From positions 8,269,834 to 8,289,833 of the forward strand of contig NC_057758.1 of assembly GCF_004010195.1 (NCBI RefSeq): 20,000 nt of DNA, read 5' to 3'. Positions 1 to 19,997 of this stretch are shown here, piece by piece. The first letter of the stretch is position 1. Each line of letters starts with the position of its first letter. Made by a program: the position numbers and the translations under genes. The notes under the pieces are model-generated. The model was not told the DNA's origin. It did not search any database and worked only from the letters and a program-made list of their open reading frames with translations. The stretch comes from Chiloscyllium plagiosum (taxonomy: Eukaryota).

Positions 1-108
1 GGATAGAACAGCAGTGTACACAGCCCGCCGAATAGCATCCGAGTGCGCCCGAAATATTCTGGGAGATTCTGTGACCTTGGAATTCGACTTTCTTCCCCAT
101 GCTTCCAG

Positions 109-320
109 CGAGCCGAACAGACGAACAAACTGTTTGCTTCCTTACCGATTATGAAAATGACTGTAAAAAAGCTAGTGCCATGTGCTCAGTCAATGTGTGC
201 CCAACAGTTTAGGTATAACCTGTTCTGAGGCTGTGCCAGCCTGAAGAACACTGTTGCAAGAATCGGCGATCTCAGACACAAGTGCCGCACGAGAGCCATG
301 AGGATACTGACTTCAGTTGA
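109..320 (+). pseudogene. Beta-defensin-like mature-domain exon (copy A), disrupted by two in-frame stops
   Basis: Polypyrimidine tract and acceptor ctttcttccccatgcttccag| end at 108. The phase-1 reading gives xSRTDEQTVCFLTDYENDCKKASAMCSVNVCPTV*V*PVLRLCQPEEHCCKNRRSQTQVPHESHEDTDFS*, i.e. C-x6-C-x4-C-x11-C-x5-CC. Stops are TAG 210-212 and TAA 216-218. This frame is absent from the ORF track. Confidence 0.8.
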
Positions 321-339
321 TTCTTAATTTGACTGTGGA

Positions 340-571
340 GTCAAAGTAAGGTCGGACTGTTTAACCGATGTTCACGGAGAGGTGTGACTTAAAACTAGCT
401 GAATTGTTAACCAGTCCTTGTCCATGCCGCATTCGGTGCCAAATGCACAGAGAAGTCTAAGTAAGGTCGGACTGTTTAACCGATGTTCATGGAGAGGTGG
501 GACTTAAAAAACCAGCTGAATTGTTAACCAGTCCTTGTCCATGCCGCATTCGGTGCCAAATGCACAGAGAA
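340..571 (+). repeat. Tandem duplication, 2 x ~116 bp (340-454, 455-571)
   Basis: The unit gtc(a/t)aagtaaggtcggactgtttaacc...aaatgcacagagaa occurs twice here and once in the paralogous copy (about 11504-11618). Confidence 0.95.
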
Positions 572-849
572 CACTGGTGAAAGCACAGGACGTCTGGTAG
601 TTTTAGCGCACAGAGAGGAAATCAGAATTAGCATTTTGAGTCTGGTTGGACTTTTCTGCAGAGAGAAACCCCAACTATTCTGGCAGCAAATACATGCAGA
701 GTGAGAAATGAAGGGGGGTGGAGGGAGAGAGTGAGAAAGAGAGAGAGAGAGCGAGAGAGGGATAACACAGAGGGCGGAATATTGTTCAAGATCAAGGAAT
801 GAAAGATTATCGCAAATGCAGAGGAATATGATTTAGAATGAAAACAGCC

Positions 850-1035
850 ATGATCAGGGATTTGATTAAAAGTTACAGAATACTCAACGACCTGGATAGA
901 ATGGGCATGACGAAGATGTATCCGTCTTTGGGAAAGGCTGGGATCCGAGGGCAAAGCCTCAGAGTAACGGGGCACACCTCGAGAATTGATTAAGGAATAA
1001 CTTCTTCAGGCAGAGAATTGGTGAATCGTGAAACT
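850..1035 (+). mobile_element. CR1-type LINE ORF2 C-terminal fragment, decayed; 3' end resumes at about 1821-1970 (paralog about 11897-12082 and 12868-13017)
   Basis: Degenerate RGDLI.YKIL..LDR...KMFP...RGHSLR...RNFF.QR.VN.WN pattern. The resumed part ends in a tatgattctatg tail. Confidence 0.7.
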
Positions 1036-1039
1036 AATA

Positions 1040-1820
1040 TGAAGCCCATCCCACCTACACTATTCCATGAATGTCCAATGACGACTTAAATGCACTTTAA
1101 CTTGGCGAATCTACTAGCGATGCAGGCAAAGCATTCCATACCCTTACTACTCTCTGCGTAAAGAACCTACATCTGACATCTGTCTTATACCTATCTCCCC
1201 TCACTTTAAAGTTGTGTCCCCTCGTGTTTGCCGTCTCCATTCTTGGAAAAAGGCTCTCCCTGTCTACCTTATCTCACCCTCTGATTATCTTTTATGTGTC
1301 TATTAAGTCACCTCTCAACCTTCTTCTCTCTGACGAGAACAGCCTCAAGGCCCTCAGCCTTTCCTCGTAAGACATTCCTTCCATACCAGGCAACATCCTA
1401 ATAAATCTCCTCTGCACCCTTTCCAAAGCTTCTGCATCCTTCTTATAATGCGGTGATCAGAGCTGTACACAATACTCCAAGTGTGGCCGTATCAGAGCTT
1501 TGTACAGCTGCAGCATAACCTCCTGGTTCCGGAAATCAATCCCTCTATTAATAAAGGCCAAAACACCGTATGCCTTCTTAACAACCCTGTCAATCTGGGT
1601 GGACATTTTCAGGGATCTGTGTACATGGACACCGAGATCTCTCTGCTCAGCTTCACTCCCAAGAATCCTACCATTAGCCCACTACTTTGCATCCCGATTA
1701 CTCCAGTCAAAGTGAATCACCACACACTTGTCCGCATGAACTCCATTTGTCACCGCTCAGCCCAGCTCTGCATCCAATCTATGTCTCTCTGCAATCTACT
1801 ACACCCTTCGTCAGTTTCCA
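1040..1820 (-). mobile_element. CR1-type LINE (RT C-terminal region to 3' end)
   Basis: Reverse strand encodes LQRDID..QSWAE.WQMEF, QRDLGVHVH, VVKKAYGVLAFINRGI, LYKALIRPHLEYCVQ, LERVQRRF motifs with stops and frameshifts. Confidence 0.92.
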
Positions 1821-3298
1821 GATAGACAGGCTCTTGATTGGTAAGACGATCACGAGTTACTGTAGGGGTGGGGTCGGTTGGAACGCATGAGGTCTGATCG
1901 AATGTTGGAGCATGTCCAGGAGCAATATGGTCAAATTCTGCATTTAAGTTTCACAATTGTATGATTCTATGGAATGAGGCAGCAGGCTTAATGACCAAGT
2001 GAACGACAATGGTCCCTTATGCGTGTATCTGCAGCTGTTAAGTGCAAATGGGGCTTCACATTGTCAGGCGTCAGTGGTAATGAATGTGAGCGAGTCGAGG
2101 TTGACCAAAAAGAGAGTACCGCAGTTTCCGAGAGCTCACACTGAGAAAATGATCTCACTGTCAGTGGGCTAAAACTGTGGGAGTGCCGCATTATCGGAGT
2201 GTCAGTGTAACTTGAATAGAACGGGGGAGTCATGAGAATTTACAAGCCGCTCTGCACAGTCATGTCAAAGTGTCAGTAATGAGGGAGCAAAAAATCAGTC
2301 TGTCGGATGGGCTGCACTGGGGTCAGCACTCGGTACTGGAAAGCCAGATCTGGTGGAGCACCACACTGTTGGAGAGTCAGTTCTTATGTAATCCTGCACA
2401 TACACAAGTGCAATCCAGCATGATTTGCTGAATGATGGTGAGTTAGGTTGGAATACACATGGCGGGGTAGAAGCAGGAAATTGAGCAAGGGTTGCTCTGC
2501 ACAGAGATCTCCAGACATACCAGGATGACCACAAAATGGCGAGACGATTATATTGATATTTCTGATTCCTGTAGTTATTCCGTGCCCTCACTGACCAACA
2601 GACAAATTCATTAACACATTTATCCCGTGAGAATCCAAACCATCATACCTGACAGTTCCAAACCATCTTCTTGGCATGTCTATCTGACGACAGGGTCGAA
2701 CCATCCAGAGTGGGCTGCAAAGTGGCAAACCAATGGGAGGAGATTCCAGTCGGTTGGAGCAATTCTCGGGTCCCAAGAATTGATTGGACCAAACGTGGCC
2801 GATGGCAGAGGTGGGGGCCTTGAATGTGCACCCATCCGAGAAACACTGGGAAGAGATAAAGGAATACTACCGCAGGAGAAAACATCAGTGTTAATCTCGC
2901 ATTCGACAGCAGCTTTTGAAACATACGTTTGTGTGTGTGTGTGTTTGCTCTTCTAATAAAAACTTGTTCAAGCATTATTAATAAAAGTCAATCAGAAATC
3001 AGTTTTAATGGGCGGAGAAGTTATAGACATGCATCGTTTTTACTCACTCATGCCACGTGAGCATCTCTGGCTATCCAGCATTTAATGCCCAACTTTAGTT
3101 TCCCCCTTAACAAGGTGGTTGTGAGTGCTTGCTCGCCATGGTCTCACATTGCTATATGGGAGACTGTTCAGAAATGAGACTCAGTGACATGGAAGGAAAG
3201 GCCGGTTTGGATTGGGGAAGATGACTCAGAAATCCATTACAGTTCAGACTTGTTTCAAACATCGACAAAATAACTGAATTTCAGAGCTGAAATGAAGG

Positions 3299-3602
3299 TC
3301 GCAAAACTGGTCTCAATGGATATCAAGGGGCAAACTCTCCATTGGTTAGGGTGGTAATCACAAGATATGCCAAATGTCAAGGTTGTTGGAGGTCAGTAAC
3401 CTCAGAACCAGAACATCTCTCCTCAGGATAGTGACCAAGGCTAAATTATCGTCAGCTACTCTACCATAACGTCATGATTACGGATGTTGCTGATGACTGC
3501 CCAATGTTCATCATCATTTGCATCTACCTAGTTACGGAAGCAGTCCATTTTAAAGTGCAACAATATGAGTACGATGTCTAGGCTCGGCTGGCAAGTGGCA
3601 AG
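3299..3602 (+). mobile_element. Decayed LINE RT fragment (paralog of 14395-14698)
   Basis: KLVSMDIKGQTLHWL, VVGGQ and ADDC remnants. Confidence 0.7.
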
Positions 3603-3776
3603 GCAAACAGAAGACTGCAGATTCTAGAGATAAGAGCCCAGAGTGTGGTCTGGAAAAGCATCACTGGCCAGACAGCATCTGCGGAGCAGGAAAATCAACG
3701 TTCAGATTAAAGCACTACCTCAGGGCTTTTGCCCAAAACATCGATATTCCTGCTCCTCGAACGTTGCCTGGTTTGC
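3603..3776. mobile_element. Decayed fold-back Penelope-like terminal repeat remnant, cut by the gap (paralog of 14699-14898)
   Basis: Similar to the 19618-19997 repeat. The second half is an inverted copy of the first. Confidence 0.65.
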
Positions 3777-4276
3777 NNNNNNNNNNNNNNNNNNNNNNNN
3801 NNNNNNNNNNNNNNNNNNNNNNNNNNNNNNNNNNNNNNNNNNNNNNNNNNNNNNNNNNNNNNNNNNNNNNNNNNNNNNNNNNNNNNNNNNNNNNNNNNNN
3901 NNNNNNNNNNNNNNNNNNNNNNNNNNNNNNNNNNNNNNNNNNNNNNNNNNNNNNNNNNNNNNNNNNNNNNNNNNNNNNNNNNNNNNNNNNNNNNNNNNNN
4001 NNNNNNNNNNNNNNNNNNNNNNNNNNNNNNNNNNNNNNNNNNNNNNNNNNNNNNNNNNNNNNNNNNNNNNNNNNNNNNNNNNNNNNNNNNNNNNNNNNNN
4101 NNNNNNNNNNNNNNNNNNNNNNNNNNNNNNNNNNNNNNNNNNNNNNNNNNNNNNNNNNNNNNNNNNNNNNNNNNNNNNNNNNNNNNNNNNNNNNNNNNNN
4201 NNNNNNNNNNNNNNNNNNNNNNNNNNNNNNNNNNNNNNNNNNNNNNNNNNNNNNNNNNNNNNNNNNNNNNNNNNNN
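3777..4276. other. Assembly gap (500 N)
   Basis: Run of exactly 500 N. Confidence 1.
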
Positions 4277-4506
4277 CCCCAAAGTCTCCATTTCATTCAT
4301 ACACTGTGGTGATCCGGTCTGAACATGGTCTTCTGACTGCCGTGTAACCAAATGTCTACACAGCAGCTAAGCTGCAACAAAGACAATGTCATCGCGGTAT
4401 CCTGCCTATTCTCTGACCATTGCTTTCGTCCCTGTCATTATGTTAGAACTCTGATCTGAATGGGAAATGAAATTTGGACAATTTATGTTTGTTGATGTCG
4501 TTTAGT

Positions 4507-4512
4507 TTTATT
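4507..4512 (-). promoter_or_regulatory. Putative polyadenylation signal of the minus-strand defensin-like gene
   Basis: tttatt on + is AATAAA on -, about 100 nt after the TGA at 4611-4609. Confidence 0.45.
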
Positions 4513-4608
4513 CATATGTGTGAGAAGGCAGTGCGTCAGGACTCATTGTATTGAGACCATGAAATGAAGATTGAATTGGTGAGATGACAGATCTCTCCAT
4601 TCGGAAAC

Positions 4609-4775
4609 TCAAAGGCTTTCCAGAGGTGCATGTTTCCTTTTCTTCATCGCTGGCAAGAAAGGCATGCAGCACACTTAGAAGTGTGGGCATGCCCCATCGG
4701 TCCTCACTGAAATTGTCTCATTACATGGTACTTTACTGCAGTAACTTCGCTCTAAAACACATGGAATGATTGGAT
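4609..4775 (-). pseudogene. Beta-defensin-like mature-domain/terminal exon with one premature stop
   Basis: Minus strand: long pyrimidine tract ttttttctcttttgttctgtctccgag| (GAG acceptor, atypical). Phase-1 reading is xPIIPCVLERSYCSKVPCNETISVRTDGACPHF*VCCMPFLPAMKKRKHAPLESL*, the same C-x6-C-x4-C-x11-C-x5-CC spacing. Premature TAA at 4677-4675. AATAAA lies about 100 nt downstream. Confidence 0.82.
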
Positions 4776-5164
4776 CTCGGAGACAGAACAAAAGAGAAAA
4801 AATATTCTTCAATGTTAACATTCCACACACTGGATATCCTCCTGTGGTCTCACTGGGGGGCATAAAGCCAGAAAATGCAGATTGCAGTCTCTCGTTTCTA
4901 ATAGTAATTTGTTGGGGTCGCTGTTGTACATATTGCTTGAAGTGGTTTCCATTATTGTTTGTGAATACCAGACCTGCATGCAGTGCTGCAGCTCTGACCT
5001 GCTATTGATATAGCCGATTGGGAACTGATCAGTTTGTTCACAGTGTGTAAATATTTGGGAAGACGGACTGCAACGTTTCTGAGCACGTTGCTTCAGGAAC
5101 TGAGAATCGATAGGAAACATCAGCTGGCTTAAAGGTGAACAGATCCCCTGGTCCGTAACTCAGT

Positions 5165-5405
5165 GACTTCATTATTCAGAGAGTTGTTGGGATATGGAAC
5201 ATCGCTGCCAAGGAGAGAAGTGGAGGCAGATTCGACAGAAGCTTTCAAAAGAGAATTGGATATTCATTTGAAGGGGATGAATTGAGAGGGATATGGAGGT
5301 AGGGATGGAGAATTGTGTTAACTTTGCAGCTCTTACTGGAGCCGGGGCAGAAACAATGGATAGAATGGTCGCGCTCTGAACTGGAAATTCTATGATTATT
5401 ATATG
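5165..5405 (+). mobile_element. CR1-type LINE 3' end, decayed
   Basis: QRVVGIWN..P...VEADS..AFKRELDIHL remnant and an attctatgatt tail. Confidence 0.75.
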
Positions 5406-5674
5406 ATGGGCAGCTGATGAAGCCTTGCTAAAAGCGGGGTGATTACAGACCAATCTTAAAGGTGGAAATAGAAGTGGTTAGTGTTAAATAATTTCTTGTG
5501 CAACAGAAGTCTTGAGGCACGGGCAACATAGACAGTTTTAATAATACAGCTTAGATCAAAGAAGACCGGACTTGGCGGAATTCAGATATTGTAAAAGCGT
5601 TCAAACTGCAGCCACTGCAGATATCAGATCAACTACACCCACAACTACAATTTCCAGGCTTTTCCCAATACTTC

Positions 5675-6190
5675 AGCGATTCCCTTACTGCTTGAAAAAT
5701 CTGTCAGTCTCACCTTTGAACACACAATTCTCTTGGGGAGAGAATTGCCTGCATTTACAACAATCCAATAGAAGAAACTTCACACCAAGAATGTTTTAAA
5801 TTGTCAACACTTCATTTTAAGACGAGGCCCTCTGGTCCTACATTCTCACATAAGATCAATCGACCTCTCACCAGTTAAACTGAAAATACGTTTAAGAGCC
5901 ATTTATTATTCAATAAGCTCACCTTGTATTCTTCGAAACTCCAACGAGTCCTCGTCTAACCTACGGAACATCTGATTAGACCGTCCGTCCATAACTGGAA
6001 TCAGCCCAATGAACTTTCTGTGGTCTGCCTTTCTTCAGGTATGCTGCCCGAAACTGTTCACAATATTCCATTATGCCGACTCGAGTCGTGTTTACCTTCA
6101 GTGAAACCTCTTGAATTTCATAATCCAATCCACTTGAATTTAAAGTCCGGCAAAGCCATGCGTATATTTAAACAAATCTGGTGAACTGTT
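5675..6190 (-). mobile_element. CR1-type LINE ORF2 C-terminal fragment, heavily decayed
   Basis: Reverse strand shows EYCEQF, SLEFRRIQGELIE and RTRGPRLK remnants. Confidence 0.7.
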
Positions 6191-6300
6191 TGCAAATGCT
6201 TCTGCGACAGATATTATTACACAACTTTGAAACATGTAGAATTTGAAACCTCCATTGCATCACAACATTCGCCCTTTCACTGAGTTGTCGCATGAATTGC

Positions 6301-6436
6301 ACATCTGCTTGGCGATCAATATTTGCAATAAGAAAAAAATGCAAGCATACGATTTTTTGTACAGACTAGAAATTATGATCGACATCTTTCTGTGCGCAAT
6401 TTTTTTTTTCTTCCAAGATTACAGAGAAAGGAACGA
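6301..6436 (-). pseudogene. Decayed beta-defensin-like exon, candidate partner of the 6582-6645 signal exon (145-nt intron)
   Basis: Acceptor taatatttcag|. Phase-1 reading FVPFSVILEEKKNCAQKDVDHNF; after a 1-nt frameshift it continues VCTKNRMLAFFSYCKY*SPSRC. C1, C3 and C4 are kept with x11 between C3 and C4. C2 (CAT) and C5 (AGC) are mutated. Confidence 0.4.
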
Positions 6437-6581
6437 CTGAAATATTAACGTGAATGAACACACATGATCAACCCAAATAGAAGCAAAGAGCATAGTGACC
6501 ACCGTTCAAAGCAGTGCTGCCCTCGTTTGACCACATGAAGTTGTGCAAATCTCTGTAAGGAAGTTTAACTGGGGTACTTAC

Positions 6582-6645
6582 AATTTTTCTGGCCTTCCAC
6601 CAACACCAGCTTTCCAATCAGCAAAAGCAGTGTCAACCACTTCAT
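6582..6645 (-). CDS. Signal-peptide exon of a small secreted protein (likely defensin-like gene), intact
   Basis: ATG at 6645 reads MKWLTLLLLIGKLVLVEGQKN plus 1 nt, followed by a consensus donor T|GTAAGTA (phase 1). It has a basic N-terminus, a hydrophobic core and a V-E-G cleavage-type motif. Upstream acceptor-like sites (ctgtgtttcag near 6677, ccacaacag near 6648) suggest a separate 5' UTR exon. Confidence 0.75.
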
Positions 6646-6929
6646 CACTGTTGTGGCGAGAGGAAAAATGACAAGACTGAAACACAGATCATCATTTTAT
6701 GGTTTCAAAGATGGCCCTGTTTTTCATCACAGACATAACTATGACTGGCACCAGTTTGAATTATGTTGAAAATTATCTCACTAACTGAGACAGGGAGTGA
6801 ATGGAACGGAAGTTCAAAGCTATCTCCTTAAAGTTTACATGTTGTACCGAACAAAGTTACCGGCCTGAGTAATGAGAGAACTAAAGAAGATCGAAATAAT
6901 TTATTTCTCGGAAATCAGTAGCACGATGA

Positions 6930-7185
6930 ACCCGTTTAGTTCCTCGAAACTGCGCAGCTGCTCGGAAGACCATGTATATTCTGTGGGTGATCTCCATATG
7001 CCTGCCTTGAGAACACATCCCTTGACATCCTTCCTCAATAAAAATGTGTCTATCTCAGATTTAAATCTAAGAATTGAAATATCATCAGCCGCCATTTGAA
7101 GATGGCATTTCTGAACCGACACTACTCTGTGTGTAGAAGTGCTTTCTATTACCTCTCCTGAATGACGCTGACAGAATTCTTAGGT
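6930..7185 (-). mobile_element. CR1-type LINE 3' end, decayed
   Basis: ORF 6901..7122 remnant RFKSEIDTFLLRKDVKG, typical of the CR1 ORF2 terminus. Confidence 0.7.
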
Positions 7186-7204
7186 AATTTGGACATCGTT
7201 TACT

Positions 7205-7340
7205 GGAACCAGCATTTATTGCTTGTTCTCAGTTGCCCTCTCGAGAAAGTGGTAGTAAGATGCCTTCTTGAACTGATGCAGTCTGAGTGCTGCAGGTTGA
7301 CTTACAATACCCTTCGGAAGGGAATTCGTCCCAGCACAAT
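7205..7340 (-). mobile_element. LINE 3' end fragment, same family as 16622-16795 (related pieces at about 3060-3200 and 14156-14296)
   Basis: ccagcatttattgc...ttcttgaactgatgcag is the reverse complement of the motif at 16700-16770. Confidence 0.6.
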
Positions 7341-7453
7341 TTTTGACTTTTAATTCAAATTGTGGACATTGTTTCTGTTTATCTCCCCTGACTTTCGCTA
7401 CTGACTCCCTGAAGTCGTTGATTAGACCATCCTTTCACGGTTCAGATTCCGAG

Positions 7454-7651
7454 ATGAAAAGGCTCTCATCACTCCTCAGAAATTAAGACGTGATGTTCAG
7501 GGTTTGTGCTTGTGCTCTTGTAATGAAATCTTTCCAATGCCTAAAGCTCCTTCCTGAAGACGTTGGCAGAGGAAATGGTTTGTGTTTCGGGTATTCCCAG
7601 AGGATTGGAGTTCTGTTGCTATCCGTTGTATTATATAATGGACTCTGTCAA
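7454..7651 (+). pseudogene. Decayed two-exon beta-defensin-like gene (candidate)
   Basis: ttcag|..ATG MKRLSSLL.. to CAGG|gtttgt (7501), then aaag| at 7546. Allowing small frameshifts, it reads (R/C)WQRNGLCFGx(F/C)PEDWSSVAIRCIIxNGLCQ. Several repairs are needed and the intron is only 45 nt. Confidence 0.35.
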
Positions 7652-7681
7652 TGGAGAATGGAAGCAGATCTCGAATGACAA

Positions 7682-7933
7682 AATCCCTACAGTGTGGAAG
7701 TCAGTGATTCGGCCATCGTGTCCACATCGACTGTTTGAAAAACATCCCACTGAGACGCACCAGAAAACTTTGATCCTGTCAGCCTGCATTTCCGATGCTA
7801 TGGAGGCTGATCACCAGGAGGCAACGCAAGCAAATGCAGGGAGAAGTTCAAACAATTAGTCACCCATTTGTGGAATCGACACGAGGTCCCTGGCACTGTT
7901 AAGCAGCAGGGCTAATCACTGAGCACCAGTGCC
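7682..7933 (-). mobile_element. Old HE1/V-SINE-like tRNA-derived SINE
   Basis: Reverse complement resembles 18314-18611 (tail ttccacactgtaggga, head ggtgctcagtgattagccctgctgc). Confidence 0.7.
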
Positions 7934-8029
7934 TCATGGTGTATTAAACAAATATTTAGGAAAGTAACAAAACTCCCACTTGACCAGAACAATGGAAGAA
8001 ATGGAAGGTATCGAGGAAATGTATACCTT

Positions 8030-8737
8030 GATGAATGATAGTGAACGTGCCTTTGTGCGGGGCAGACCATGTTTCACAAGCCTAATGGAACTATTTGAGA
8101 ATGTGGCAAAACACATTAATCAGGGCAGAGCACTTGATGTACTCGAGATGAATTGCAGCATGGCGTTTGCTAATTCAGAAAGTAACAACGCGTGAGATTC
8201 AGGGAAATCTCGCTGTCTGGATATAGATTTGCCTGGCCCACAGAAGAGGAGAATAGTCGTAGATAGAAAGTATTCAGCCTGGATCTCAGTGGCCAGTGGT
8301 GTTCTGCAGGGGTCTGTTCTGGAAAATTTGTTCATTGTGATTTTTATAAATGACTCGCATGTGGAAGTGAAAGGGTGTTTAGACAAATATGCCGATGACA
8401 CAAAGGTTACTGCGGGTCCTGATATGTGGAGTGCTGTTATAGGTTGTAACGGGAGACTGACAGGATGTACAGCGGGTCTGAGAGGTAACAGGCAGATTCT
8501 AACTAGAAAAAGCGTAAAGTGTTTCATTGTGAAATTTGGAATTATAATGTTGATTACAGGGGTAAAGGCAAGATTTTTGTCATTGTGGTGGAACAGAGGG
8601 ATCTTGGGATGCACGCACATAGATTCCTGAAAGTTGCCACCCAAGTTGAAAGGGTTGTTCAGAAGGTGTATGATGTGCTGGCTATTGTTAGCAGCGGAAT
8701 CAGATTACGAACCGCAAGGTTATGCTGCATGTCTATG
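8030..8737 (+). mobile_element. CR1-type LINE reverse transcriptase, decayed; 3' end continues at about 8958-9260
   Basis: ORF remnants FVRGRPCFTSLMELFE..QGRALDV, SGVLQGSVL..FIND..YADDTKV, EQRDLG and RKNFFSERAIDLWNSL. Confidence 0.93.
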
Positions 8738-8957
8738 AACCCACCCATTCCCCTACGCCTAACACTGCGGGCAATTTAGCACGGTCAATTCACCTGACCT
8801 GCACATCTTTGGACTGTGGGAGGAAACCGGAGAAAACCCACGCAGACACGGGGAGAATGTGCAAACTCCACACAGTCAGTCGCCTGAGTCGGGAATTGAA
8901 CCAGGTCTCTGAGCGCTGTGAGGCAGCAGTGCTAACCACTGTGCCACCGTACTGCCC
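8738..8957 (-). mobile_element. HE1/V-SINE-like tRNA-derived SINE inserted in the CR1
   Basis: Minus strand: A-box tggcacagtgg, B-box ggttcaattcc and core tgtggagtttgcacattctcccc. Close match to 18314-18611. Confidence 0.93.
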
Positions 8958-9386
8958 AAAAGGGATGCTTCCTCAGGTCGGGATTTGTAGAAGGATAGGT
9001 CCATGTTTTAAAATAAAGGTATGAATTCAGAACATAGATGAGGAAGAATTTTTTTTCTGAAAGAGCCATCGATTTGTGGAACTCTCTGACGCGGGATGCA
9101 GTGAATGCTGGGATACTAGTAAACGTAAAGAAGAGGTGGACAGATTTTTACCTGACTTCGGCTGAAGAGATGGGACTGGAATGTAGAGTTGGCGGTTGGG
9201 AAAAGGTCAACCATGATTACATTAAATGACCGCTGGCTTGAGGGATTTCCTATCCTTCTCCTTTTCCTTGTTCTTCACCTCTCACACAACACAATTAACC
9301 CTGGGCTCATTTATTATAATGAGACACTGGCACGTTCCCTGCACCCTTTCCTCCAGCAAACCAACTCTGTTACCGAAATGATTTAA

Positions 9387-9870
9387 AAGTAAACAGGAGT
9401 TTGGCATCTTGCATGTTCAACTTTGCAAGTCATGCGACAGAGTTACTGGCTGAACCCTCAAATGTTTGCTGTTTTTCCACACCGTTCACACAAAGGGACG
9501 TGAGATACTGTTTCCAAATTTGTGGATGGCAGAAAGATAGCCCGAAAGAAAAATAACTCAATAGTAATCCTTGGACGTGATGTAAGTAAATTTCATGAAG
9601 GCTGGATATCAGGTGCTCCTGCGCAGATATAGAATGTTCAGTGTGCAAGCACGGTATACAGGCATGGAGAGAAGAACGATTGCTCGGGCAGGAAGTAAAC
9701 AGGAGTTTGGCATCTTGCATGTTCAACTTTGCAAGTCATGGGACAGAGTTACTGGCTGAACCCTCAAATGTTTGCTGTTTTTTCCACACCGTTCACACAA
9801 AGGGACGTGAGATACTGTTTCCAAATTTGTGGATGGCAGAAAGATAGCCCGAAAGAAAAATAACTCAATA
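9387..9870 (+). repeat. Near-identical 177/178-bp direct repeats (9387-9563, 9693-9870) around a 129-bp unique spacer
   Basis: Direct comparison shows one substitution and one 1-nt indel. Confidence 0.95.
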
Positions 9871-9884
9871 AGACAGTTCTGAAC

Positions 9885-10205
9885 ATGAGTGCAGAATTAG
9901 ATTTAACATTGATAAGTTTAGGAAACGCTCTTGGGAAGAAGAATCATGGTAGGAGAGTACTCAAGATTCGTGGGTCATGAGAAGGCTCAAAGGAATAGAG
10001 GAATCTTCGGAGCGTGTCCACATGTTAATGGTAGAATTAAGAAGGACCGTGTTGTCTTTACCATTCGACACATCGCTTATGAAAGCAGGAGGTTATGTTG
10101 GATCTGTACAGAACTTCAGTTTGGGCAGAGATGAAATATTGTGCGTACTCCTGGTAATCACGCAATGGGAAGGATATCTTGTACTGGAGGGAGAAAAGAG
10201 GAGGT
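9885..10205 (+). mobile_element. CR1-type LINE RT C-terminal fragment, heavily decayed
   Basis: EVMLDLYRT..EMKYCAYSW..KD..LEG remnants. Confidence 0.7.
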
Positions 10206-10499
10206 GGCAAATTTAATTGAGTTACAAGCTTGCAGAGAAGCAAATATCTGCACATTTCTGTCTTAATTCGGAAGTCCCTTATTCTCAAACTATTGCCTGC
10301 CGTTCTCGATATACCGAGGAGAGGAAAAATCAGCTCGAACATAAATTTGACTTTCTTTTTAGGCAGATCACACAGACTCACAGATTCATACAGTCTGGAG
10401 AATATTGTTTTGTTAACATAGAAAAAAATGCAAGAGGAAGAAAACTATACTTCAGTAATACAGGGCATTGGTGACACTGCAACTTGGAGAACTGAGCAG

Positions 10500-11225
10500 T
10501 GAACAATTTCGATGCATGCAGATGACTCGAAACCTGGGAGAACAGTAAACTGTGTGAAGGACAGTACAGAGATTCAAAAGGACACTAGCAAATTGGTAGA
10601 GTTGGCAGGTAAGAGGTAGACACATTTCAATTCAGAGAAGTGAAAGGGGACGCACTTTATTGGAAGATCACTGAAAGGCAATATAAAATTGGGATTGGGT
10701 GGTACAGGTGGCAGAAATTTAAAGGGGGGCAGGCGCAAAGAAACATGCATGTATCTGTGTGCAGATAATAGACCTTGGTAGGACAAAGGGAGACAACAGC
10801 AAAGAAAGAATAAACTGGTGCAACTGCTTTCCCTGGAGAGAAAATGGCTGAGAGGAGATATGACGGAGATTTCAAAATCATGGCATGGGGTTGAACTGTG
10901 TACACAGGGAGAAGGCTTTACCATTTGTAAAAGAATCAAGAATGAGATGGGCGTATGGTCGCATCGTTAAGGTGGGTGCAAATGAAACAATAGTGAAGAC
11001 AGTAAGATCTTTTCCACCCAGTGAGTACTTAGGGTTTGGAATGCATGGCCTGGAGGTATACTCATGGCAAGTTCAATTAATAGTTTCAAGACGGAAGTCG
11101 GGTATTTGTTGGTGTGGAAATGAGATGCAGTGATCTGGGGAAAGAGTCACGAAGTTTACATCGGGGATAGAACAGCAGTGTACACAGCCGGCCGAATAGC
11201 ATCCGAGTGCACCCGAAATATTCTG
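10500..11225 (+). mobile_element. CR1-type LINE (ADD motif to 3' end), decayed, internally deleted
   Basis: ADDSK, IQKD..KLVE, FNSEK, FSLE..WLRGD and VWNA remnants. Its 3' end abuts the acceptor of the defensin-like exon. Confidence 0.75.
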
Positions 11226-11272
11226 GGGGATTCTGTGACCGTGGAATTCGACTTCCTTCCCCATGCTTCCAG

Positions 11273-11484
11273 CGAGCAGAACAGACGAACAAACTGTTTG
11301 CTTCCTTGCCGATTATGAAAATGAATGTAAAAAAGCTGGTGGCATGTGCCCAGTCAATGTGTGCCCATCGGTTTAGGTATAACCTGTTCTGAGGCTGTGC
11401 CTGCCTGAAGAACACTGTTGCAAGAATCGGCGATCTCAGACACAAGTGCCGCACGAGAGCCATGAGGATACTGACTTCAGTTGA
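11273..11484 (+). pseudogene. Beta-defensin-like mature-domain exon (copy B), disrupted by two in-frame stops
   Basis: Acceptor cttccttccccatgcttccag| ends at 11272. Phase-1 reading is xSRTDEQTVCFLADYENECKKAGGMCPVNVCPSV*V*PVLRLCLPEEHCCKNRR..., including the typical C-xxx-GG-x-C motif. Stops at 11374-11376 and 11380-11382. Confidence 0.82.
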
Positions 11485-12086
11485 TTCTTAATTTGACTGT
11501 GGAGTCTAAGTAAGGTCGGACTGTTTAACCGATGTTCACCGAGAGGTGTGACTTAAAACTAGCTGAATTGTTAACCAGTCCTTGTCCATGCCGCGTTCGG
11601 TGCCAAATGCACAGAGAACACTGGTGAAAGCACAGGACGTCTGGTAGTTTTAGCGTACAGAGAGGAAATCAGAACTTGCATTTCGAGTCTGGTTGGACTT
11701 TTCTGCAGAGAGAAACCCCAACTATTCTGGCAGCAAATACATGCAGAGTGAGAAATGAAGGGGGGTGGAGGGAGACAGTGAGAAAGAGAGAGAGGGCGCG
11801 AGAGAGGGATAACACAGAGGGCGGAATATTGTTCAAGATCAAGGAATGAAAGATTATCGCAAATGCAGAGGAATATGATTTAGAATGAAAACAGCCATGA
11901 TCAGGGATTTGATTAAAAGTTACAGAATACTGAGCGGCCTGGATAGAATGGGCATGACGAAGATGTATCCGTCTTTGGGAAAGGCTGGGATCCGAGGGCA
12001 AAGCCTCAGAGTAACGGGGCACACCTCGAGAATTGATTAAGGAATAACGTCTTCAGGCAGAGAATTGGTGAATCGTGAAACTAATG

Positions 12087-12867
12087 TGAAGCCCATCCCA
12101 CCTACAGTATTCCATGAATGTCCAATGACGACTTAAATACACTTTAACTTGGCGAATCTACTAGCGATGCAGGCAATGCATTCCATACCCTTACTACTCT
12201 CTGAGGAAAGAACCTACCTCTGACATCTGTCTTATACCTATCTCCCCTCACTTTAAAGTTGTGTCCCCTCGTGTTTGCCGTCTCCATACTCGGAAAAAGG
12301 CTCTCCCTGTCTACCTTATCTCACCCTCTGATTATCTTTTATGTCTCTATTAAGTCACCTCTCAACCTTCTTCTCTCTAACGAGAACAGCCTCAAGGCCC
12401 TCAGCCTTTCCTCGTAAGACATTCCTTCCATACCAGGCAACATCCTAGTAAATCTCCTCTGCACCCTTTCCAAAGCTTCTGCATCCTTCTTATAATGCGG
12501 TGATCAGAGCTGTACACAATACTCCAAGTGTGGCCGTATCAGAGCTTTGTACAGCTGCAGCATAACCTCCTGGTTCCGGAAATCAATCCCTCTATTAATA
12601 AAGGCCAAAACACTGTATGCCTTCTTAACAACCCTGTCAATCTGGGTGGAAATTTTCAGGGATCTGTGTACATGGACACCAAGATCTCTCTGCTCAGGTG
12701 CACTCCCAAGAATCCTACCATTAGCCCACTACTTTGCATCCCGATTACTCCAGCCAAAGTGAATCACCACACACTTGTCCGCATTAACTCCATTTGTCAC
12801 CGCTCAGCCCAGCTCTGCATCCTATCTATGTCTCTCTGCAACCTACTACACCCTTCGTCAGTCTCCA
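12087..12867 (-). mobile_element. CR1-type LINE (paralog of 1040-1820)
   Basis: Same motifs. ORF 12797..13045 ends EGCSRLQRDIDRMQSWAER. Confidence 0.92.
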
Positions 12868-13970
12868 GATATACAGGCTCTTGATTGGGAAGACGATCAC
12901 GAGTTACTGTAGGGGTGGGGTCGGTTGGAACGCATGAGGTCTGATCGAATGTTGGAGCATGTCCAGGAGCAATATGGTCAAATTCTGCATTTAAGTTCCA
13001 CAATCGTATGATTCTATGGAATGAGGCAGCAGGCTTAATGACCAAGTGAACGACAATGGTCCCTTATGCGTGTATCGGCAGCTGTTAAGTGCAAATGGGG
13101 CTTCACATTGTCAGGCGTCAGTGGTAATGAATGTGAGCGAGTCGAGGTTGACCAAAAAGAGAGTACCGCAGTTTCCGCGAGCTCACACTGAGAAAATGAT
13201 CTCCGTGTCAGCGGGCGAAAACTGTGGGAGTGTCAGTGTAACTTGAATAGAACGGGGGAGTCATGAGAATTGACAAGCCGCTCTGAGCTGCACTGAGCAC
13301 AGTCATGTCAAAGTGTCAGTAATGAGGGAGCAAAAAATCAGTCTGTCGGATGGGCTGCACTGAGGTCAGCACTCGGTACTGGAAAGCCAGATCTGGTGGA
13401 GCACCACACTGTTGGAGAGTCAGTTCTGATGTAATCCTGCACATACACAAGTGCAATCCAGCATGATTTGCTGAATGATGGTGAGTTAGGTTGGAATAAA
13501 CATGGCAGGGGTAGAAGCAGGAAATTGAGCAAGGGTTGCTCTGCACAGAGATCTCCAGACATACCAGGATGACCACAAAATGGCGAGACGATTATATTGA
13601 TATCTCTGATTCCTGAAGTTATTCCGTGCCCTCACTGACCAACAGACAAATTCATTAACACATTTATCCCGTGAGAATCCAAACCATCATCCCTGACAGT
13701 TCCAAACCATCTTCTTGGCATGTCTATCTGACGACAGGGTCGATCCATCCAGAGTGGGCTGCAAAGTGGCAAACCAATGGGAGGAGATTCCAGTCGGTTG
13801 GAGCAATTCTCGGGTCCCAAAAATTCATTGGACCAAACGTGGCCGATGGCAGAGATGGGGGCCTTGAATGTGCACCCATCCGAGAAACACTGGGAAGAGA
13901 TAAAGGAATACTACCGCAGGAGAAAACATCAGTATTAATCTCGCATTCGACAGCAGCTTTTGAAACATAC

Positions 13971-13974
13971 GTGT

Positions 13975-14040
<66 letters not shown>
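13971..14040. repeat. (GT)n microsatellite, about 35 units (only about 7 in the paralog at 2931-2944)
   Basis: Directly visible. Confidence 0.98.
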
Positions 14041-14045
<5 letters not shown>

Positions 14046-14394
14046 CTTCTAATAAAAACTTGTTCAAGCATTATTAAAAAAAGGCAATCAGAAATCAGTT
14101 TTAATGGGCGGAGAAGTTATAGACATGCATCTTTTTTACGCACTCATGCCACGTGAGAATCTCTGGCTATCCAGCATTTAATGCCCAACTTTAGTTTCCC
14201 CCTTAACAAGGTGGTTGTGAGTGCTTGATCGCCATGGTCTTACATTGCTATGTGGGAGACTGTTCAGAAATGAGACTCAGTGACATGGAAGGAAAGGCCG
14301 GTTTGGATTGGGGAATATCACTCAGAAATCCATTACAGTTCACACTTGTTTCAAACATCGACAAAATAACTCAATTTCAGAGCTGACATGAAGG

Positions 14395-15493
14395 TCGCAA
14401 AACTGGTCTCAATGGATATCAAGGGGCAAACTCTCCATTGGTTAGGGTGATAATCATAAGATATGCCAAATGTCAAGGTTGTTGGAGGTCAGTAACCTCA
14501 GAACCAGAACATCTCTCCTCAGGATAGTGACCAAGGCTAAATTATCGTCAGCTACTCTACCATAACGTCATGATTACGGATGTTCCTGATGACTGCCCAA
14601 TGTTCATCATCATTTGCATCTACCTAGTTACGGAAGCAGTCCATTTTAAAGTGCAACAATATGAGTACGATGTCTCGGCTCGGCTGACAAGTGGCAAGGC
14701 AAACAGAAGACTGCAGATTCTGGAGATAAGAGCCCAGAGTGTAGTCTGGAAAAGCATCACTGGCCAGACAGCATCTGCGGAGCAGGAAAATCATCGTTCA
14801 GACTAAAGCACTACCTCAGGGCTTTTACCCAAACCATCGATATTCCTGCTCCTCGAATATTACCTGGTTTGCTCTCGTTTCCAGCACCACACCCTCAACT
14901 GACAAGTTGCATGTCACATCCACGTCATGCACATGCCAAATTATCACCCCTACAAATAAGAGACAATCTAACAATTGACCCGACTCAGTCAATGTTGTTA
15001 CAATCAATAAGTCCTCAAAATGAACATCCTGCGCTTTATGTCTGATAAGGAACTCAACTGGACTCACCACGTAAACACATTAGCTACAGGAAGCGGTCAG
15101 CGACGAGGAATACTGTGGCTAATAACTCAGGTCTTAACTCCACTAAGCCTCGACATAATCTAAAAGGTACAGATCATGAGTGTGATGGACTACCACATCA
15201 CTTGTGTGGATAAGTGCAGCTGTAACAACGCTTAAGACGTTTTGAACCATCCAAGACAAAGCAGTGCATGAATGGCATTATGTTCCCAACTATTCAAACT
15301 CTCGAACGCCCAAGCTCAGGAGCAATAGTGTGTACTTTATATCGGATGTTATGTCAAAATTCAGCAAATTTCACTCAGATCGCACTGTCAAAATTCATGA
15401 CAAATTTGCCTTCCAAGAAAAAGTGTAGCAGATTAATGGTGAAGCTATCACCTGAAAGGTTTCCTCCAAGCCACTCATATCCTGACTTAGAAC
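14395..15493 (+). mobile_element. Decayed non-LTR LINE (second CR1-group family), RT region, interrupted at 14699-14898; 3' end displaced to 16622-16795
   Basis: KLVSMDIKGQTLHWL, PDDCPMF, ADKWQ, KELNWTHHVNTLA, KVQIMSVMDY and TIQDKA remnants. Confidence 0.8.
14699..14898. mobile_element. Fold-back Penelope-like terminal repeat remnant inserted in the LINE, with a 15-bp flanking duplication
   Basis: Inverted arms (ggagcaggaaaatc / gatattcctgctcc; ctggaaa / tttccag). Flanks are ctgacaagtggcaag (14684-14698) and ctgacaagttgcatg (14899-14913), 13/15 identical. Confidence 0.7.
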
Positions 15494-18313: not shown

Positions 18314-18611
18314 GAGTGCAACGGTGGCACAGTGGTGAGCACTGCTGCCTCACAGAGCCAGAGACCAGCGTTCAATTCCCGCCTCAGGCGACTGCCTGCG
18401 TGGAGTTTGCACATTCTCCTCGTGTCTGAGTGGGTTTGCTCCGGTTTTCTCCCACAGTCCAAAGATGTGCAGGTTAGGTGAATTGGCCATGCTAAATTGT
18501 CCGTAGTGTTAGGTGAAGTGGTAAATGTATGGGTGGGTTGCGCTTCAGCGGGTCGTTGTGGACTTGTTCGGCCGAAGGGTCGGTTTCCACACTGTAAGTA
18601 ATCTAATCTAA
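18314..18611 (+). mobile_element. Full-length HE1/V-SINE-like tRNA-derived SINE with CR1-type tail
   Basis: Pol III A-box tggcacagtgg (18325-18335), B-box-like gttcaattccc (18370-18380), V-type core, and tail ttccacactgtaagtaatctaatctaa. Confidence 0.95.
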
Positions 18612-19307: not shown

Positions 19308-19676
19308 TAGACTGATCAGAAGAAAGTGGAATAATACTGTTAAGATGCAAAATCACGGTACATTTTAAGGAATAAAAGAAGTTTCAACTACAAAATGCCA
19401 TGAATTGCACGGAACCGACTGACATCACTCGCCGCATCCTATAACTGCATTCGCTATTCTATTCCTGTAGTATCTGGATTTTATGCCTGACCAGAAATGT
19501 AAATCCATCAACTGTGAAAGCAACTATGAACCAGCTAAAACAGGGCAGGGCCATAAGAAACAGACCAATTCTGAATGCGTACAGAGCGGTCATGTCCAAG
19601 ATTGCAACTGGGGAATGAGTTGAAACTTTCTTGCTGGAACAGCACAGCAGGTCAGGCAGCATCCAGGGAACAGGAG

Positions 19677-19712
19677 ATTCGACGTTTCGGGCACAGGCCC
19701 TTCTTCAGGAAT
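19677..19712 (-). ncRNA. Minimal type-I hammerhead ribozyme motif
   Basis: Minus strand AUUC-CUGAAGA-A-GGGC(CUGU)GCCC-GAAAC-GUC-GAAU: CUGANGA and GAAA boxes, 4-bp stem II, stem I AUUC/GAAU, GUC cleavage triplet, palindromic ACGU in place of stem III. Confidence 0.8.
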
Positions 19713-19962
19713 GAGCAGAGAGTGTTCAGCAGGAGAAGATAAAAGGTAGGGAGGAGGGACTTGGAGGAGGGGCGTTGGAAATGTGATAGGTGGAAAGGGG
19801 TCAAGGTGAGGGTGATAGGTCGGAGTAGGATGGAGGCGGAGAGGTCAAGAAGAAGACTGCAGAAGACTGCAAGAAAGTGAGGTCTGCAGATGCTGGAGAT
19901 CAAAGTTGAAACTTTATTGCTGGAACAGCACAGCAGGTCAGGCAGCATCCAGGGAACAGGAG

Positions 19963-19997
19963 ATTCGACGTTTCGGGCACAGGCCCTTCTTCAGGAA
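19963..19997 (-). ncRNA. Second minimal hammerhead ribozyme motif
   Basis: Identical core UUC-CUGAAGA-A-GGGC(CUGU)GCCC-GAAAC-GUC-GAAU. Confidence 0.75.

Follow-up and report, generated by a model that had tools for sequence, protein, structure and literature searches.

A 20-kb segment of the Chiloscyllium plagiosum genome is probably part of a decayed tandem duplication within a large two-exon beta-defensin-like family

Beta-defensins carry six cysteines spaced to the consensus C-X4-8-C-X3-5-C-X9-13-C-X4-7-CC (PMC515299), with disulfides C1-C5, C2-C4 and C3-C6 (PMC8231796). Their genes occur in clusters, with 13 in 86 kb in chicken (PMC515299) and 63 in 5.5 Mb in a lizard (PMC12278569), and the cluster adjoins cathepsin B in chicken, lizard and mammals (PMC515299, PMC12278569). 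A two-exon plan has been proposed as ancestral, with an extra intron gained by teleosts (PMC8231796). No report of a shark beta-defensin was found in the literature searched, whose coverage was incomplete and without supplements. In the antimicrobial peptide section of a 2019 review, the entries for cartilaginous fish are limited to transferrin, squalamine and kenojeinin, with no defensin (PMC6795676), and in the available text of a shark skin proteomics paper the word defensin appears only among the references (PMC10707392). Here we analyse 20,000 nt of Chiloscyllium plagiosum DNA (the window; contig NC_057758.1, C49:8269834-8289833), in which a first-pass annotation had proposed a chondrichthyan beta-defensin-like gene cluster. 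The best explanation of the window as a whole, to which we assign a probability of about 0.82, is that it represents a piece of a decayed tandem duplication within a very large two-exon beta-defensin-like family.

A six-frame scan recovered the exact pattern C-x6-C-x4-C-x11-C-x5-CC, as first reported from inspection, in three exons: at 162-257 and 11326-11421 on the forward strand, and at 4761-4666 on the reverse strand. A relaxed six-cysteine pattern was absent from all 300 order-3 Markov simulations of the window, against the three observed. Segments 1-3776 and 11165-14872 (both forward strand) are duplicates of 95-96% identity, so only two of the three motif observations are independent. 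The two forward-strand copies are termed type A here, and the reverse-strand gene type B.

None of the three copies has an open six-cysteine reading frame. The second exon of type A copy 1 (148-320) contains in-frame stops at 210-212 and 216-218, and that of copy 2 (11312-11484) contains stops at 11374-11376 and 11380-11382. In intact paralogs the acceptor AG lies 14 nt before the first cysteine codon; the window copies have CG at that position (146-147 and 11310-11311), and the homologous type A exons therefore start at 148 and 11312. The first-pass annotation had placed all of these exons in phase 1 behind pyrimidine-tract acceptors. This description fits the type B second exon (4609-4775, reverse strand), which a pyrimidine tract precedes, though its acceptor, GAG, is weak; TAG stands there in most close paralogs. 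It fails for the type A starts proposed at 109 and 11273. The upstream AG chosen as acceptor for copy 1 (107-108, forward strand) lies 39 nt above the family acceptor position and is not the homologous one, and in intact type A paralogs the stretch above the family acceptor has an in-frame stop or runs out of frame. In the type B exon, a premature stop at 4677-4675 falls between Cys4 and Cys5. Lesions are shared among local copies: the second stop and the lost acceptor of type A occur in all four and the first stop in three of four, while the type B stop is common to four copies. As shown by the stops, the lost acceptors and a missing first exon, all three window copies are pseudogenes, without a six-cysteine peptide product.

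The first exon of the type B gene (6582-6645, reverse strand) is 64 nt long, or 21 codons plus 1 nt; it is open, ends in phase 1 and is followed by a GTAAGT donor. Judged by hydropathy and conservation, it probably encodes a signal peptide (best 9-residue hydropathy 2.6), with one lysine within the hydrophobic stretch. This lysine is found in the window and in type B paralogs, and is replaced by alanine, serine or threonine in related subfamilies. An intact phase-1 signal exon between the cysteine exons, as first described, is thus present, but lying on the reverse strand it serves type B only. From the splice signals and the paralogs, a phase-1 intron of 1806 nt would occupy 4776-6581 on the reverse strand. 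In RNA runs of unspecified tissue, of which a few percent were read, the type B exons had no depth and no spliced read joined them. The six cysteines, the stop and the polyadenylation signal all lie within one exon. The polyadenylation signal, AATAAA (4507-4512, reverse strand), is situated ~100 nt past the type B stop; among six paralogs compared, it holds the same position in four, lies 10 nt nearer in one and is absent in one. By its position, ~50 nt upstream of the start codon, a CATAAAA sequence (6695-6701, reverse strand) may be a TATA-like element. Several type B first exons elsewhere have a GC donor (GCAAGT) instead of GT (L025, L026, L028, L031, L036 and L041), some of them with an intact second exon.

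Four features of the window's type B gene are intact, namely its first exon, the donor, the TATA-like element and the polyadenylation signal, and its ratio of non-synonymous to synonymous substitution (dN/dS) against intact paralogs is 0.20, which implies a recent loss. It might therefore be argued that the gene remains active, yielding a truncated peptide with four cysteines or a transcript with a regulatory role, or that its stop is a segregating allele. We consider this very improbable. The stop, shared as described above, deletes Cys5 and Cys6, the acceptor has decayed to GAG, and in L021, the closest copy that combines this first exon with an open second exon, the acceptor has been lost. 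At position 4778, every contig of run X2 that covers it carries the base that gives a TAG acceptor, and the window base there may be private to one copy or individual.

Self-comparison of the scaffold identified a tandem unit of ~13 kb (C49:8260807-8273609), repeated from 8274110. The second unit is without a 3.2-kb segment that bears the type A first exon; as a consequence, copy 1 keeps a first exon, outside the window and ~3.4 kb upstream (near C49:8266470), with a weak donor, while copy 2 is an orphan, for which no type A first exon was found upstream. A repeat resembling a short interspersed nuclear element (8739-8950, reverse strand) lies near the junction of the missing ~3.2 kb, with 89% identity to a second copy, in opposite orientation, at 18321-18534. 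The duplicate at 1-3776 stops at a 500-N scaffold gap (3777-4276), as would be expected if the second type A copy were an assembly artefact in which both haplotypes had been placed in tandem across the gap. Such an artefact appears highly improbable: the copies are 4-5% different and carry indels, the surrounding 65 kb contain two further copies at 91-95%, of which one is inverted, and the duplication spans the ~13-kb unit with its internal loss of 3.2 kb.

The duplicated unit would, on the tandem duplication reading, be a head-to-head pair of type B and type A genes on opposite strands, with first exons ~3 kb apart. The window would then hold the end of one unit, namely the type A second exon, and the whole of the next, comprising the type B gene and the orphan type A exon. 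Type A starts with a first exon of its own, coding for a signal peptide and an acidic pro-segment, and 26 genomic matches to this exon were obtained. Twelve of them face a type B first exon head to head on one contig, at distances of 1.7-3.4 kb, and many of the remainder sit on short contigs. In most cases the type A partner beside an intact type B gene no longer has a start codon, and none of eight loci showed a second exon over distances of up to 10 kb. Type A first exons (L180, L181, L015, L166 and L183) come in two lengths, with a difference of 2 nt ahead of the donor. In the shorter variant another donor-like GT, situated 4 nt upstream, would bring the exon back into phase 1, possibly a compensating donor shift. 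What the window adds to the picture of the family is a duplication unit made up of the head-to-head pair, together with a local graveyard of that pair.

The wider family was examined in the whole assembly (3.56 Gb, 101,977 contigs). DNA searches with three exons as queries returned 15 (type A exon), 39 (type B exon) and 30 (type B signal exon) matches, and further types were added by protein and family searches. A local profile search within the fetched loci, which covers only part of all matches, gave 112 distinct second-exon places. Of the 112 places, 50 look intact (intact paralogs are found, for example, at C49:7833586, C49:6510754 and C49:3821206), while 46 are without a six-cysteine frame, 11 have stops and 5 lack an acceptor. 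Scaffold C49 holds 32 places (0.84-8.90 Mb), C46 holds 7, and C8, C27, C33, C43, C45 and C50 hold one each; the other 67 are on high-numbered contigs and were treated as unplaced. Further family matches on C49 and C50 lie beyond the fetched loci. At the scale of the scaffolds the genes do lie in tandem clusters, but a working cluster in the window itself is not supported: all six family copies at C49:8.20-8.29 Mb are broken (129 kb examined, 9.5 kb of it N). Family exons are distributed along nearly all of the 10-Mb scaffold C49, with further groups at C46 3.76-4.40 Mb and C50 3.2-7.8 Mb, and these three scaffolds may be parts of one defensin-rich region. Cathepsin B propeptide exons are at C9:579039-579244, 0.58 Mb from the start of C9; C49 is a separate contig, which could still adjoin C9.

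The 55 unbroken six-cysteine frames encode 47 distinct core peptides, so that some places may be haplotype copies. They fall into two classes, with ten or eleven residues between Cys3 and Cys4, and a single case with twelve. In 50 of the 55, from both classes, the acceptor AG is exactly 14 nt before the first cysteine codon, and at 11 loci an intact second exon is accompanied by a signal exon that is open and in phase 1. Between types the peptides are 21-32% identical, and the six cysteines are invariant. Purifying selection acts on the paralogs: Nei-Gojobori dN/dS was 0.20-0.51 in nine of eleven comparisons, 1.85 in one group of three near-identical sequences, and undefined through saturation in the last. 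No family member was found in protein collections, which fits the earlier expectation that automated annotation would miss these genes. Two loci have tandem exons, L024 (C97408) with two first and two second exons within one gene, and L112/L114 (C46:3859743 and 3860126) with two second exons 383 nt apart. In several groups particular cysteines have been lost jointly (L065, L067, L119, L121, L123, L125, L126 and L128), with the frame open in most members; these could be dead or reduced-disulfide variants.

As to kinship with beta-defensins, the 6,4,11,5 spacing of the three window exons lies within the published consensus (PMC515299). It had been equated with that of teleost beta-defensin 1, which is incorrect: sea bass BD1, with cysteines at 31, 38, 42, 54, 60 and 61, has 6,3,11,5 (PMC8231796). 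Sister peptides of the ten-spaced class matched Pfam PF00711 in three of three cases. An intact type A paralog was modelled (predicted local distance difference test, pLDDT, 83) with a short helix and a three-stranded antiparallel sheet. Beta-defensins topped two fold searches with this model, with weak scores and from an alignment that included Pfam-positive types; the solved structures matched were human hBD-1 (2nls), hBD-2 (1fd3) and hBD-3 (1kj6), mallard AvBD3 (7lzl) and crocodile CpoBD13 (7t9q). The proposal of a beta-defensin-like locus in an elasmobranch-type genome is supported by consensus spacing, a two-exon structure interrupted in phase 1, over 100 relatives, Pfam-positive sisters and the paralog fold. 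The first-pass interpretation as a whole is partly supported, as the window contains no working cluster.

Several results weigh against the reading preferred here, and each lends something to an alternative. Between most subfamilies the cysteine core is no better conserved than the 3′ flank. Taken with the high copy number and the single copies on the large contigs C8, C27, C33, C43 and C45, this might be expected of parts of a transposable-element family, or of chance motifs. Such an origin is barely tenable and already largely refuted by the simulations and by dN/dS below 1. The cysteines are, moreover, kept with synonymous codon changes over subfamilies 20-30% identical, the exon pairs are phase-matched over introns that differ in length, and the family is concentrated on C49 and C46.

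The second difficulty concerns sequence profiles. The hidden Markov model check suggested for stop-repaired window peptides gave no match: even read through with X, none of the three window exons scored above the cut-off for Pfam PF00711 or PF13841, and nor did any of ten intact eleven-spaced paralogs. As types A and B miss the Pfam defensin models, they are named 'beta-defensin-like' here. A sequence search of the PDB with eleven-spaced profiles gave no defensin among its matches, type A similarity resides mostly in the cysteines, and the type B model, too poor for a fold comparison, gave no fold match. In the fold check suggested at the outset it was the intact type A paralog that gave a match, with weak scores. 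Types A and B might accordingly belong to a distinct family of secreted six-cysteine peptides that resemble beta-defensins and by chance lie among true ones on the scaffold. This is improbable, because both share with the Pfam-positive types the two-exon plan, intron phase and acceptor offset, the type B profile match exceeds that of cysteine-fixed shuffles, and the type A paralog models with a beta-defensin fold. A peptide tree also places type A among the ten-spaced types, albeit weakly, with few columns and long branches.

The last difficulty concerns charge, and with it function, the least certain step. The net charge (K+R-D-E) of intact second-exon peptides is near neutral in type B (-1 to +1) but positive in type A (+2 to +6), and most ten-spaced types are cationic as well (+1 to +8). 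The intact paralogs would be transcribed, spliced over one phase-1 intron and secreted by means of the signal peptide, and their product would have the three-disulfide alpha-beta-beta-beta defensin core, as modelled for one type A paralog, with the pairing of beta-defensins. Like other vertebrate beta-defensins, intact members would most likely serve innate defence at epithelial surfaces, through membrane attack or immune signalling. Such a role is somewhat favoured for the cationic ten-spaced types and for type A, and less so for near-neutral type B.

It is possible, though doubtful, that the intact relatives are folded as defensins but are not antimicrobial, and that they instead have a reproductive-tract role, attract cells or inhibit enzymes. 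Such functions would be compatible with dead copies in the window. Mammalian beta-defensins have reproductive-tract roles. The near-neutral charge and long tail of intact type B point in the same direction, as does the acidic pro-segment of type A; the fold is common to helianthamide, a tick carboxypeptidase inhibitor and defensin-like venom peptides, and L200 gave a faint match to the Pfam I68 inhibitor (E 0.041). Anionic fish beta-defensins and chemotactic activity have also been described (PMC3978493, PMC8231796). On the other side stand the cationic charges of type A and of most ten-spaced types, and the ranking of beta-defensins above inhibitors in both fold searches. The family would appear to turn over by birth and death, through segmental duplication and decay, and such expansion is typical of host-defence genes.

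Much of the remaining window appears, by eye, to be occupied by decayed reverse-transcriptase fragments resembling long interspersed nuclear elements, for example at 8196-8630. Positions 339-571, 9387-9870 and 19618-19997 contain short tandem duplications of local extent (118, 178 and 94 nt; 95-99% identity). Elsewhere in the assembly, an alpha-globin exon is closest to the PDB chains 1gcv (69.9 bits), 3mkb (59.5) and 1cg5 (55.5), two shark haemoglobins and one from a ray, with the next single chain at 48.6 once engineered double-alpha chains that match twice are disregarded; this makes an elasmobranch source likely. Two globin matches of equal score on different large contigs (C1:41995839 and C21:6894506) each contain an internal TAG.

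Taken alone, the window matters little, as it contains three pseudogenes. They add new members, none of them functional, to a known kind, and it is the undescribed family, not the window copies, that carries the interest. A bolder proposal is that sharks have an unannotated multi-megabase superfamily of beta-defensins, with over 100 genes and pseudogenes against the few of teleosts, and with the putatively ancestral two-exon plan. Its shark-specific A and B clades, paired head to head and possibly sharing a promoter, would have gone from antimicrobial chemistry to another secreted role, with neutral type B and the acidic pro-segment of type A as indications. We consider the whole of this unlikely; were it true, the window would be a graveyard of the A/B pair. 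Beta-defensins in sharks are to be expected, and their number and divergent paired clades less so. A shark cluster would put beta-defensins and large expansions at the base of jawed vertebrates, and its two exons would back the proposal that teleosts gained the extra intron (PMC8231796). The family would also offer dozens of natural peptides for testing.

The known systems compared include other peptides of beta-defensin fold. The big defensin C-terminal domain (6qbk), helianthamide (4x0n), crotamine (1h5o), the platypus defensin-like peptides (1b8w, 2mn3) and the tick carboxypeptidase inhibitor (1zlh) mostly ranked below true beta-defensins. They gave no sequence match, and a venom or inhibitor role is not indicated here. 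Among teleost beta-defensins, sea bass BD1 and BD2 likewise have six cysteines with a final CC pair, place eleven residues between Cys3 and Cys4, and have a first exon that ends in phase 1, of 55 and 58 nt against 64 nt here (PMC8231796). They differ in spacing, with 6,3,11,5 for BD1 and 5,3,11,5 for BD2 against 6,4,11,5 in the window (PMC8231796). They also differ in having three exons, with the cysteines split over exons 2 and 3, instead of two. Family size differs as well: zebrafish has three genes and salmon seven, compared with the 100 or more places found in this assembly (PMC3978493, PMC8231796).

Tetrapod beta-defensins share the clustering and large expansions and, from the weakly scoring model of one type A paralog, possibly the fold. 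The window copies differ from them as pseudogenes, and types A and B fall below the Pfam model. Further differences are the near-neutral charge and 18-residue tail of type B, the long type A first exon with its acidic pro-segment, and the duplication of the two as a head-to-head pair. In gene structure, the signal peptide is on an exon of its own and all six cysteines are in one, as in human (PMC3978493), and the shark plan, read from exon phases and splice signals, appears to be the mammalian two-exon plan.

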